Made by a program: the position numbers and the translations under genes. Below the pieces are notes generated by a model, which saw only the letters and a list, made by a program, of their open reading frames with translations, ran no database searches and had not been told where the DNA came from. 64,000 nucleotides of DNA from Octopus vulgaris. Its lineage: Eukaryota. Location of the stretch: assembly GCA_951406725.2 (NCBI GenBank), contig OX597826.1, forward strand, positions 66,588,001 through 66,652,000. The letters run 5' to 3'. Position 1 is the first letter of the stretch. Every line of letters begins with the position of its first letter. Positions 16,130-59,823 of the stretch are shown in pieces.

Positions 16130-16262
16130 GAGGGGAGAATTTACACAAAAAAAAAAAGACGAAGACAGGTAGTGTAGTAAATAAACAGATGTATAAGTAT
16201 AACGTTCAGGAAGTGAAAAAATCTTCAACGTTTCGAACCTACGCTCTTCCACAGAAAGGAAT
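16130..16262 (-). mobile_element. Short hammerhead-bearing element, family E
   Basis: Minus strand CUUU-CUGUGGA-A-GAGC-GUAG-GUUC-GAAAC-GUU-GAAG (16223-16258); 3' end runs into (TA)n. Confidence 0.7.
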
Positions 16263-16271
16263 ATTTATATA

Positions 16272-16712
16272 CATTCTTTTATTTGTTTCAGTCATTTGAC
16301 TGCAGCCAAGCTGGAGCACCGCTTTAGTGGCGCAAACCGACCACATAACTTATTCCTTGTAAGCCTAGTGCGTTTTCTATTGGTCTCTTTTACCGAAGCG
16401 CTAAGTTGCGGGGACGTAAACACACCAGCATCAGTTGTCAAGCGATGTTGTTGGGGAGGAGAAGCACAGACACACACACACACAGACACACACGCACACA
16501 CACACGCACACACACACACGCACACACACACACACGCATACACACACAAATATACATGTATATATACGACGGGCTTCTTTCAGTTTCCGTGTACCAAATC
16601 CACTCGCAAGGCTTTGGTCAGGTCGAGGGTATAGTAGAAGACACTTGCCCAAAGTGCCATGCAGTGGGACTGAACCCGGAACCACTTGGTTGGTAAGCAA
16701 GCTACATACCAC
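16272..16712 (-). mobile_element. SINE family A
   Basis: Matches the family A consensus, with internal (CA)n. Confidence 0.9.
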
Positions 16713-17955
16713 ACACACACACACACACACGCACACTCACACACATACATACACACACACATCATGTGTACATACTTATACGTATATATGTATGTATGTT
16801 TGTATGTATGTATGTATGTATGTATGTATGTATGTATGTATGTATGTATGTGTGTATGTATGTATGTATGTATGTGTGTGTGTGTATGTATGTATGTGTG
16901 TATGTATGTATGTGAATGTATGTATGTATGTATGTGTGTATGTATGTATGTATGTATGTATGCATGCATGCATGCATGCATGTATGTATGTATGTATGTA
17001 TGTATGTTTGCATGCATGCATGCATGTATGTATGTATGTATGTATGTATGTATGTATGTATGTATGTATGTATGTATGTATGTATGTTTGCATGTATATA
17101 TGTATGTATGTATGTATGTATGTATGTATGTATGTATAAAAGTACGTTATTTAAGAATGAATTTCTCTAGTTACTTTACACCCTAATTTGCTTTCCATAG
17201 CATGCAATTAACTGGACAAATTCATTTCTGACTTTTTGAAATTATCTCCCTTTCTTTCTTGAGAGGCTCTAACAATTGCCGCTAGGTTTCTGTTTTCCAT
17301 CTCCCACTTAGAACGAAACTTAAAGCTAAAAAAAAAAAAAGGGAAAAAAGAAAGGAAAAAAGAGAAGGAATTTACTTAGCTTAATTATCCAAATTTCTAC
17401 TTTAGACCCCCTAAAGTTATTTCTTTTACTTGTCTGTGTTCCTATTTTTGTTCTTCTCAGTCCTTCTCTCTCTCTTTTTCTCTGTGTATATATTTACATA
17501 CGCATATATGTTTATACACATACACACACACACAAGCATATGCACCCCACCACATATACATATGTTCTTGTAAGCTTGTTCGTTAGAACAAAGCTTACAG
17601 GTATAACATGAAGTGCAGACTCCTTCAGTGGGCAGTGTTATATATTCTTTCTTTGGCGAATAGTTTACAATTTTAATTATGTTCCGATACTAAGTGCATC
17701 GGTTACACACGCGTACGCCCATTTTTCCACACATCCATAGAAGCATGCATACAAACACACATGTATACATAGATACTCCTATACACACACACACGAGTAT
17801 ATATGTATATATATATATATATACATACACATAGACACGCGTATACACACAACACACATATGTATATATATTCATACAAGTAAGCTTATAAATGTAACAC
17901 AAGGCGGAAAAAAATAGTACTAGATTACCTAAGGCAGAGCAATATATATATATTT

Positions 17956-18143
17956 TTTTATCAGAGCTTCAAAATCTTCACAGAACTATTGCTCAGTGTT
18001 TCAGGTTCCCGTTCGTCGGACGATTGGGAGGAATGCTCACAACTGTCCGGCAACAAACAACTGTATTGATCACAACTGTCCGAAGAGCGGGAACGTGAAA
18101 CTCTGTGAGACAATTCTGAGAAGATTTTGCAGCTTTAATAAAA
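17956..18143. repeat. Diverged fold-back palindrome with a hammerhead remnant in each arm
   Basis: Right arm AACTGT-CCGAAGA-GCG-GGAA-CGT-GAAA-CTC..GAG-ACAATT; left arm (minus) CCGACGA-ACGGGAACCT-GAAACACTGAGCA. Confidence 0.75.
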
Positions 18144-57041: not shown

Positions 57042-57484
57042 TATATATTAGAAAAATTGAGGTAATCAGATCAGATGGTTCATATTTGTAGATATTTATT
57101 TATATATTACATTTTTTACATATATATCATATCATTCGGATTAGCGCTTGCTCCCATTCTAGTGGGTTTTCAAATCAAATCAGTTGTGGGTAGTTTGAAC
57201 CTTTTTATAGTTTCGTAGTAGTGGGTGAGGAGGAAGTGAGACAGAGAGTCTCACTTCCTGTCCTCACCCACTTCCTCCTCACTTCCTCACTTCCTCCTCA
57301 CCCACTACTACGAAACTATAAAAAGGTTCAAACTACCCACAACTGATTTGATTTGAAAACCCACTAGAATGGGAGCAAGCGCTAATCCGAATGATATGAT
57401 ATATATGTAAAAAATGTAATATATAAATAAATATCTACAAATATGAACCATCTGATCTGATTACCTCAATTTTTCTAATATATA
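57042..57484. repeat. Near-perfect fold-back palindrome with 199-bp arms
   Basis: 57042-57240 is the reverse complement of 57286-57484; the 45-nt spacer is mostly short copies of the arm end. Confidence 0.95.
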
Positions 57485-58456
57485 ATACCTGTACATCATC
57501 TCCAAACCTTCCGATATATATATATATATATATATATATATATATATATATATTATATATATAATATATATATATAGTATGTACATATAGTGAACAGATT
57601 GTTTTACTACATGTATTGAAAACATGATGTGTTATAGTTTTTATGAACCTGTTTACATTCCTTGCATTTGTAATGTTTCTTATTCCACTGGCAACGTTTA
57701 TAGATCTTTATAGCGCCATCTTGACGATAATGTGGTGTAGACGTGTTTTAATACTACTTTATAGAAGTCAATATGATTGCTGCAGCTGTTATTAGATATT
57801 ATTACCAGAAGTTAAATTTTTAACATTAGATTTTATACTTCGTTCGTGAGGTGATTATTTTTGTTAGTGGTTAATTTACGTTGTCCGCGTCATTATTTTA
57901 GCATTGTCTCGCCTAATTATAATGGTCCTGTCTGCTATAGAGAATCAGCAAAACGAGTCGACATTTCGTCGACTGGATGTTGGGTGCATGATGAAAGCCT
58001 AGAAATACTGGTGATTTCTTTAGCAAATTTACTATTCGAAACCAATCGCACAGAACTCGTATGAAAATATGATCAAAAACCCCATCATTGATAAAGTAGG
58101 GCACAAACATGTCTTTAATGCAACACACAAAGATATGTGATATATGATATATGATATACAGTCTATCTATCTATCTATCTATCTATCTATCTATCTATCT
58201 ATCTATCTATCTATCTATCTATCTATCTATCTATCTATCTATCTATCTATCTATACATATATGCATACATACATACAATCATTCATACAGACATGAATAC
58301 ATGTATAGAAGCAGGCATGGCTGTGGGGTCTCACAACCCCATGGTTTCAGGTTCTGTCCCATTGCGCGTTATTTTAGGCAAGTGCAATGTAACTTGAGGC
58401 CAAAAAATGCCCTGCAAGCCAATTTGTTAGACGAAATACACACACATACACACACG

Positions 58457-59328
58457 TCATATCTACCGGCGGTTAAGATACGTTTATCTTATTTTTAAAA
58501 GTATTAACAAATTGCTCTGCGCTTCATGCAGCGGTAATTCAACGGTATTATTGATAGGAGACCGAGTGTCATACGGAGCTGAAGAAGCATGAGTCCTCTT
58601 GTTACTGTTAGTAAAATAATTGTTAGTCATGGTAAAATACTGAAAAACAAGCCGAAATATCGCAGTCACCTAGCACAGACTTACGAAATATTGCTCATGG
58701 TACGTCGGCCATTACGAGGACAGGTTATATCATCACATTATAATTTTTCTACAGTATATATAACTCACACTTCATACGTGTCTTATATTATTTAATTACT
58801 GTGTTACCTTTCAGAAACAGTTTAAAAAAAAAAAAAGAAATATCTAAATGAAACATTCTCATAGAAAGATGAAAGGAACTTTAAACGTTTTTCTCCGCCT
58901 GGCAGCTATTTGCAATGAGCGAATGACAACAAAACCCTAGCGGCATTGCGCCATCATGGTGGCTAATCGCATTAAACACAAAACATCACAGAGAAAAATA
59001 CGAGTTTTACGTCCCGCATATAAATTCTCTTGATCAACATATAAACAACTATACATTTGATGTGAAAGAACAATATGATCAGATATGGTTCGCATATAAC
59101 GTAGTTTACATATGATAAATTTATGGTTTCATATTTTATTCAGAGCACTGTCACAGTATTGTATTTATACGCACAGAATCATGCATTTCCTTCACTAAAA
59201 CCATTTAAAAATATCTTTCAACGAGTGTATGACGAAACATTATATATTGGTTTTCTTTCCACAGAATATACTTGTAAAAGAGTGGTTTGTCTTATGTGAA
59301 AGTGAGTCCTATACTCCGGCAAATGCAG
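58457..59328. mobile_element. pogo/Tc2-like non-autonomous element (~870 bp), uninterrupted copy
   Basis: Termini TCATATCTACCGGCGGTTAAGA / GTCCTATACTCCGGCAAATGCAG-TA; homologous to 45430-47936 in the opposite orientation. Confidence 0.6.
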
Positions 59329-59647
59329 TATATATATGTGTTGTGTGTTTGTGTACACAGACACATACATACACATACACACGTACATATATATATATAT
59401 ATATATATATGTATATATATGTGTGTGTGTGTGTGTGTGTATGCTGGTAAGAAGTTTGCATGTCAACCACATGTCTCTCGTTTCAGTGCCACTGCATGAC
59501 ACCTTGGACAAGTGTCTTCTACTATCGCCTCGGGCCAACCAAAGCCTTCTTAGTGGATTTAGTAGACGGAAACTCAAGTCAAAGAACCCTGTCGTATACA
59601 CACACACACACACACACACACATATATATATATATATAGAGAGAGAG

Positions 59648-59823
59648 ATCGCTAGCCACTACACATTTTTTTATCTCGTTGTTTTTTTTCTGTGTTCCTT
59701 TCTGTGGAAGAGCGTAGGCTCGAAACGTCAAAGACTTTTTCAATTCCCAAGCGTTTTACTAATACAGCTGTTTGTTTTCTACACCACATGTCTTCGTCTT
59801 TGGTTTTTTTTGTGAATTGTCCC
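59648..59823 (+). mobile_element. Family E hammerhead-bearing element
   Basis: CUUU-CUGUGGA-A-GAGC-GUAG-GCUC-GAAAC-GUC-AAAG (59698-59733). Confidence 0.75.

Follow-up and report, generated by a model that had tools for sequence, protein, structure and literature searches.

A 64,000-nucleotide stretch of the Octopus vulgaris genome (contig OX597826.1, positions 66,588,001 to 66,652,000, forward strand; hereafter the window) carries a short repeat, here called family E, whose copies contain a hammerhead-like motif with no loop on stem III. This raises the question of what kind of element the repeat is and whether its motif could cleave RNA. The repeat is real, and it consists of a hammerhead-type motif on a short mobile unit. 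We read family E as two related repeat families of ~200 nt, likely end-pieces of Penelope-like elements (PLEs), with a predicted hammerhead that could act only as a dimer and whose commoner form, subtype B, would cleave poorly or not at all owing to a U at core position 6 (U6). We give this reading roughly two chances in three.

A loop-less hammerhead motif in two subtypes

The earlier note on this window had described eight copies. A fuzzy pattern search, BLAST and nhmmer recovered the motif at all eight sites, agreeing within 1 nt, and a ninth piece absent from that note was found, a subtype B tail without a hammerhead (Table 1). A pattern derived from the copies themselves, with up to 2 substitutions allowed, matched 7 sites in the window, whereas 30 hexamer-shuffled sequences gave no match at all. 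A general descriptor, which allowed a canonical or U6 core and required every stem to have at least 3 bp, matched five of the eight copies and no further site in the window. Pattern scans of metagenome contigs and of viral contigs, neither set consisting of animal genomes, returned 0 loci each. The window is animal-type DNA, 35.6% guanine plus cytosine, rich in microsatellites and short repeats. An Rfam scan was uninformative for hammerhead models, since the 150 matches listed of 367 were all to microRNA families and lay mostly on microsatellites.

Table 1. Family E pieces in the window (predicted cuts follow hammerhead numbering)
Piece	Span	Strand	Motif	Core C3	Motif features	Unit limits and notes
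Copy a, subtype B	16126-16264	-	16223-16258	16254	U6; two wobble changes	5' end shortened by another repeat; terminates at (TA)n
Ninth piece, subtype B tail only	21290-21363	+			no hammerhead	nhmmer E 2.6e-12 in window
Copy b, subtype B, decayed	24930-25101 (5' limit approximate)	+	24977-25012	24981	U3, U6; stem II broken in family register	ends at (TA)n
Copy c, subtype A, full unit	41511-41718	-	41613-41647	41643	A6, C4	(TA)n both sides
Copy d, subtype B	43366-43538	+	43413-43448	43417	U6 sole core departure; predicted cut after 43444 (GUU)	ends at (TA)n
Copy e, subtype A	56005-56140	-	56030-56064	56060	first core strand canonical; G12 to A; stem I just 2 bp	3' part missing
Copy f, subtype A	56618-56822	-	56721-56756	56752	A6, C4; private change within stem III	ends at (TC)n(TA)n; adjoins copy g on downstream side
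Copy g, subtype B	56823-57014	-	56916-56951	56947	U6, G at 17; outer stem I pair lost	(TA)n 5' side
Copy h, subtype B	59638-59823	+	59698-59733	59702	U6 sole core departure; predicted cut after 59729 (GUC)	microsatellite both sides

The division into two subtypes was borne out. In subtype A the 5' strand of stem I is G-U-U-U, facing A-A-A-C, and all three copies have A6. In subtype B, C-U-U-U faces A-A-A-G, the stem II loop is GUAG, and U6 is found in all five copies, as the earlier note had reported for one subtype. Its other structural observations also held: an extra A precedes stem II in 8/8 copies, and the loop-less ACGU of stem III is exact in 6/8. The pair G10.1-C11.1 is G-C in seven of the eight. 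In the eight-copy alignment, 91.3% of 80 cells were paired (87.5% in stem I, 93.8% in stem II) against at most 44.4% when the structure was slid along the sequence, the structure scored having itself been read from those eight copies.

A fully canonical core was present in 0/8 copies. Subtype A keeps A6 throughout and departs elsewhere, with C4 in two of three copies (c and f) and G12 replaced by A in the third (e); copy g has G17 and copy b a broken stem II. In copies d and h all core positions other than 6, together with stem II and ACGU, are intact. Both subtypes also share a GAGCG...TAATAC patch ~15-35 nt 3' of the predicted cut (56670-56695, 56880-56900). The patch repeats the 5' strand of stem II and could pair with the 3' strand; in fold computations it captures that strand in only part of the copies. 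A role as a folding switch or as a binding site for a protein may be considered.

The exception reported at 56916 (copy g) is real in that the outer stem I pair is lost. Compared by eye with 43417 and 59702, copy g seems to have undergone a private 6-nt deletion in its U-rich leader. Loose ends of family members in public runs carry C at the deviant stem I position. The idea that copy g is a chimera of the two subtypes was dropped in favour of the short deletion. As a single case, the altered 5' strand of stem I in copy g complements the 3' strand of stem I in copy f.

To view the family beyond the window, four of 24 listed public sequencing runs (X1, X2, X5 and X12) were mapped on the g-f tandem at 80% likeness, a setting that favours sequences resembling those two copies; runs from unrelated metagenomes with small shares were ignored. 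The runs consist of contigs with guessed RNA labels, were not used for expression, and give depths that equal neither copy number nor selection. The numbers of contigs mapped on the two units were 7087, 1460, 1710 and 395. Both subtypes occur under two species labels, organism A (three runs) and organism B (one run). In each run depth peaked in the B core bins; in X1 it was 2.6 million there, while the B tail reached at most 0.35 million and the first strand of the A core ~0.02 million.

Several private changes in the window copies are reversed in the family. At the altered stem III position of copy f, the family letter restores ACGU in 80-93% of depth by run. U17 at copy f accounts for 86-95% of depth in the organism A runs and 27% in the organism B run, and position 17 at copy g is A or U in the family. 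At copy f, C4 prevails in each of the four runs, with U4 at 26-35% of depth, so that subtype A may also include a common C4 sub-lineage (56751, 41642). Some subtype A copies seen in loose ends have a first core strand that is canonical. A6 makes up less than 8% of depth in X2, a value drawn from the tally of changes rather than read directly: the tally has one A>T place, explained by 56771, and four other classes tally exactly. In the other three runs (X1, X5, X12) one or two A>T places are unaccounted for, which leaves room there for a minority of A6. No contig spanning the g-f junction was present among the contigs listed. Three skips and two go-back joints were seen, every one of them in just one contig with a guessed RNA label.

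Unit limits and the search for a Penelope-like partner

Full units measure ~186-208 nt, and their 3' end is constant. In six of the eight copies (TA)n sets in 121-135 nt past C3, compared with a frequency of 0.118 for a random 31-nt slot, the slot having been picked after inspection. The two copies outside it are e, whose 3' part is missing, and g, which joins f through a short TA-rich joint. The unit usually ends in (TA)n, as the earlier note held. Since (TA)n also lies on the 5' side of c, g and h (3/8), it resembles a target site and not just a tail. (TA)n is a preferred target of several PLE groups and is given as such for cephalopod Naiads (PMC8557442). Subtypes A and B have in common the motif and a 23-nt downstream patch. 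Copies g and f form a head-to-tail B-A pair (56618-57014, minus strand) with cores 195 nt apart. The window shows no tandem array of one unit: the nine pieces are dispersed, with this single mixed pair.

The window contains decayed PLE frames away from the copies, which supports a PLE origin. A decayed frame at 62652-63278 gave 11 protein matches at E of 0.001 or below. Two repetitive multi-stretch matches were dropped, and the remaining nine relatives look PLE-like by eye (YRDD, KPN, NHP, WFNPP), the longer ones with a C-terminal endonuclease-like part, also judged by eye; Pfam named no PLE domain in 8 of these relatives. A PLE profile matched 62805-63697 and, weakly, 23435-23552 (iE 5e-4), and tblastn with the PLE relatives added 390-968 (+; E 1e-8). 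The first of these (+) is a frameshifted, decayed PLE frame with a reverse transcriptase end carrying YRDD, a linker and an endonuclease-like end, and no family E motif follows it within the window. The piece at 23435-23552 (+) shares the strand of copy b and precedes it by 1.4 kb, the interval being filled by unrelated repeats. The PLE ending in family E sequence that the earlier note had proposed to look for was not present in the 64-kb window by Pfam, tblastn or the PLE profile.

Two candidates in this search were rejected. A 'YVGES' stretch upstream of copy b, taken as a GIY-YIG remnant, was unsupported by Pfam, tblastn and the PLE profile. For the relic at 62.8-63.7 kb the name 'Naiad' was rejected since its best full-length relatives have, by eye, a C-terminal endonuclease-like part; a word-index protein search with this relic gave no match.

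Other repeats were noted in the window. Segments at 7495-8748 (-), 28634-29014 (+) and 41962-42349 (+) we take, by eye, to be pieces of R4/Dong-type long interspersed nuclear elements (LINEs), with reverse transcriptase and a restriction-like endonuclease end. Judged by eye from the list of open reading frames, 46433-46738 (-) resembles the N-terminus of a mariner-like transposase and 47119-47469 (-) an RTE-like LINE end. Long hairpin-like stretches at 29850-29960 and 57170-57360, with sub-threshold plant microRNA matches in Rfam, are probably inverted microsatellites or small inverted-repeat elements.

Predicted folding and the likely activity of subtype B

We infer a PLE origin, mobilisation by PLEs and a dimeric fold. 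Family E units would be PLE end-pieces, either short non-autonomous units or solo pseudo-long terminal repeats (pseudo-LTRs). The reverse transcriptase and endonuclease of a PLE would act on them in trans and place new copies in (TA)n runs. In the predicted dimer, the ACGU of each RNA would pair with that of its partner (4 bp), stem II would stay within each molecule, and stem I would form between the partners, the 5' strand of one RNA with the 3' strand of the other. Each core would then cut the partner RNA after GUH. The outer stem I pair, G-C in one subtype and C-G in the other, would favour partners of the same subtype, and U6 would add a pair allowing the monomer to fold into a simple closed hairpin.

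Computed energies were in keeping with a preference for like partners. With a nearest-neighbour model that ignores stacking and tertiary contacts, and with copy b omitted for its broken stem II, the catalytic dimer of the cleanest copies came to about -13 kcal/mol in B/B combinations (d-d, d-h, h-h), to -7.3 in A/A (c-c) and to about -4 in A/B (c-d, c-h); on these values the swapped outer pair would favour like partners. In monomers a, d, g and h the probability of U6-A15.1 pairing was 0.48-0.98, and it dropped to 0 once A replaced U6 in silico. Monomer folds differed among copies when 75 nt of context was included.

Natural A6C hammerheads are slow in Mg2+, and by analogy the U6 motif of subtype B is most likely weak or dead as a ribozyme, carried by a non-autonomous PLE end-piece that has spread successfully. 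For subtype B, as for most individual copies, the alternative given in the earlier note, an inert fossil of a PLE end, may hold.

Several results weigh against this reading. The earlier note had called stem I covarying. The switch of the outer pair between subtypes stands, and its significance as covariation does not: one pair only changes (C-G in three copies, G-C in three, unpaired in two), and 105, 491, 133, 491 and 100 of 500 shuffles reached the observed values. Because only that pair changes, and because it divides the two subtypes, the two-sided change counts as a single event. Similarity between A and B tails beyond the 23-nt patch is mostly within the shuffle range (2-52 of 300). In a Pfam search of 24 frames lying upstream of eight pieces (all but copy f, whose upstream neighbour is g) no PLE domain came up, and no PLE-like piece in the window adjoins any family E copy, so the link to PLEs is drawn from the motif itself. 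Two folded monomers were more stable than the catalytic dimer in 28/28 pairs computed, a result that fits the low published activity. The literature found held no kinetics for A6U, and the A6C data serve as an analogy. Two further results are hard to square with a fully dead motif: B core depth is 7-50 times that of its tail, and pairwise identities are 316/370 in the B core against 700/900 in the tail, from non-independent pairs and a tail prone to slippage.

The best placed of the alternatives, itself unlikely, holds that the subtype B motif is non-enzymatic and is kept as a hairpin or dimerisation signal for the PLE reverse transcriptase, making B the better passenger. U6 would merge stem I and stem II pairing into one rod, which together with the deep B core in every run speaks for this explanation, and PLEs without canonical hammerheads spread well (PMC8557442). 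Yet one third of random changes at position 6 would yield the same pair, and with flanks included the 3' strand of stem II pairs downstream (0.45-0.92) in four of the five B copies, so that the rod is not clearly dominant.

Next comes the improbable case that subtype B is a fully working ribozyme, with U6 tolerated or compensated by a metal ion, a protein or the downstream GAGCG patch, and with selection on cleavage holding the core. The constancy of U6 in the five copies and the low share of A6 in run X2 would fit, as would the otherwise intact copies d and h and a core more conserved and far deeper than its flanks; Mn2+ can rescue A6C (PMC7151607). Against this, changes at position 6 reduce activity and the published PLE motifs have A there, and in the fold computation U6 favours the closed hairpin. 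Slippage in the U-rich tail could alone produce the gap between core and tail, and contig depth is no gauge of selection.

A bolder version, which we regard as quite improbable, would make subtype B a working dimer-only U6 hammerhead among the most abundant short repeats of its lineage, with the swapped outer stem I pair as a partner code preventing cross-cutting between A and B. If true, it would be the first high-copy natural ribozyme family without A6 and would supply the first orthogonal ribozyme dimer pairs within one genome.

It is very improbable that the repeat is a short interspersed nuclear element (SINE) or miniature inverted-repeat transposable element (MITE) with a chance likeness to a hammerhead and no PLE ancestry: the lack of an adjoining PLE frame and a B-box-like 9-mer inside the motif of copy a would suit it, but no tRNA gene was found in the window, A-box-like and B-box-like sequences occur in 1/9 pieces each and never in the same piece, the longest terminal inverted match in the nine pieces is 2-4 nt, and the motif fits the consensus of the published PLE hammerhead, min-HHR, at every structural feature (PMC4209133). 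Runs of at least four T number 1-6 per piece across the nine pieces.

PLE movement may require cleavage by the hammerhead, or the hammerhead may be a mere passenger (PMC4209133, PMC8557442). The presence of a near-canonical family beside a much commoner U6 family in one genome offers a direct comparison. If B is dead and yet amplified, cleavage would be dispensable for these units. If B cuts, the core consensus would need a new entry, and searches with CUGANGA-based descriptors would have missed a large family.

Comparison with known hammerheads

No report of a U6 hammerhead was found among the literature matches listed, nor was any report of a hammerhead in octopus found, in a coverage that most subscription papers lie outside. 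Natural variants at the same core positions offer the nearest comparison for the departures of family E. The A6C hammerhead of phage Bcep176 has a kobs below 0.1 per min and performs better with Mn2+, and the U4C variant of a viroid is weak in vitro and sufficient in the viroid (PMC3088659, PMC7151607). These share with family E a natural change at position 4 or 6, and show low but detectable activity. They differ in having C rather than U at position 6 and in coming from monomeric ribozymes at single loci, whereas family E is a high-copy animal repeat.

The non-LTR retrozymes of animals have units of 170-400 nt that carry a hammerhead, and a non-autonomous origin from PLEs has been proposed for them (PMC7229834, bioRxiv 10.64898/2026.07.22.740005). 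Like family E they are short and non-coding, and dispersed monomers occur among them. Unlike family E, whose copies are dispersed apart from one mixed B-A tandem, they are defined by tandem repeats, have mostly canonical type I hammerheads and are expressed as circular RNA. The small PLE-associated hammerhead variants of Lunse, Weinberg and Breaker, as their title and a review (PMC6765202) present them, share with family E the diminished palindromic stem III, the dimer cleavage (predicted for family E) and the PLE association.

The closest match is the min-HHR found in pseudo-LTRs of metazoan PLEs, a type I motif without a helix III loop (PMC4209133). Its recurrent features are a base between positions 9 and 10.1, the pair G10.1-C11.1 and a palindromic 15.2-16.2, and the consensus of its Fig. 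S3 reads as a U-rich flank, CUGANGAH, G...C, GAAA, the palindrome and UH. By our hand count of that figure, stem III is ACGU in 29/56 motifs and A6 is present in 56/56. There are thousands of min-HHRs per genome, mostly as solitary copies, and cleavage was low in dimers and trimers and absent in monomers (Cervera and de la Pena 2014, PMC4209133). Family E has the same type I layout, absence of loop 3, palindromic stem III, extra base and G10.1-C11.1 pair, and likewise a short stem I, a U-rich 5' flank and mainly dispersed single copies, with many families per genome. It differs in the U6 of subtype B, in the common C4 of subtype A and in having no PLE frame attached to a copy within the window; cephalopods are absent from the 56 examples. 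The obligate-dimer ribozyme variant proposed earlier therefore stands in part: stem III cannot close within one molecule, a partner would be needed and the unit is short and mobile, while on these features the motif is not a new variant, since PMC4209133 defines it. Subtype B has a min-HHR-like layout and, judged by its letters, departs from the type at A6; we found no description of such a form, the collection of Lunse and colleagues being compared through its title and the review. By sequence the architecture is otherwise the standard min-HHR of PLEs, already known, and subtype A is probably a further member of that kind.

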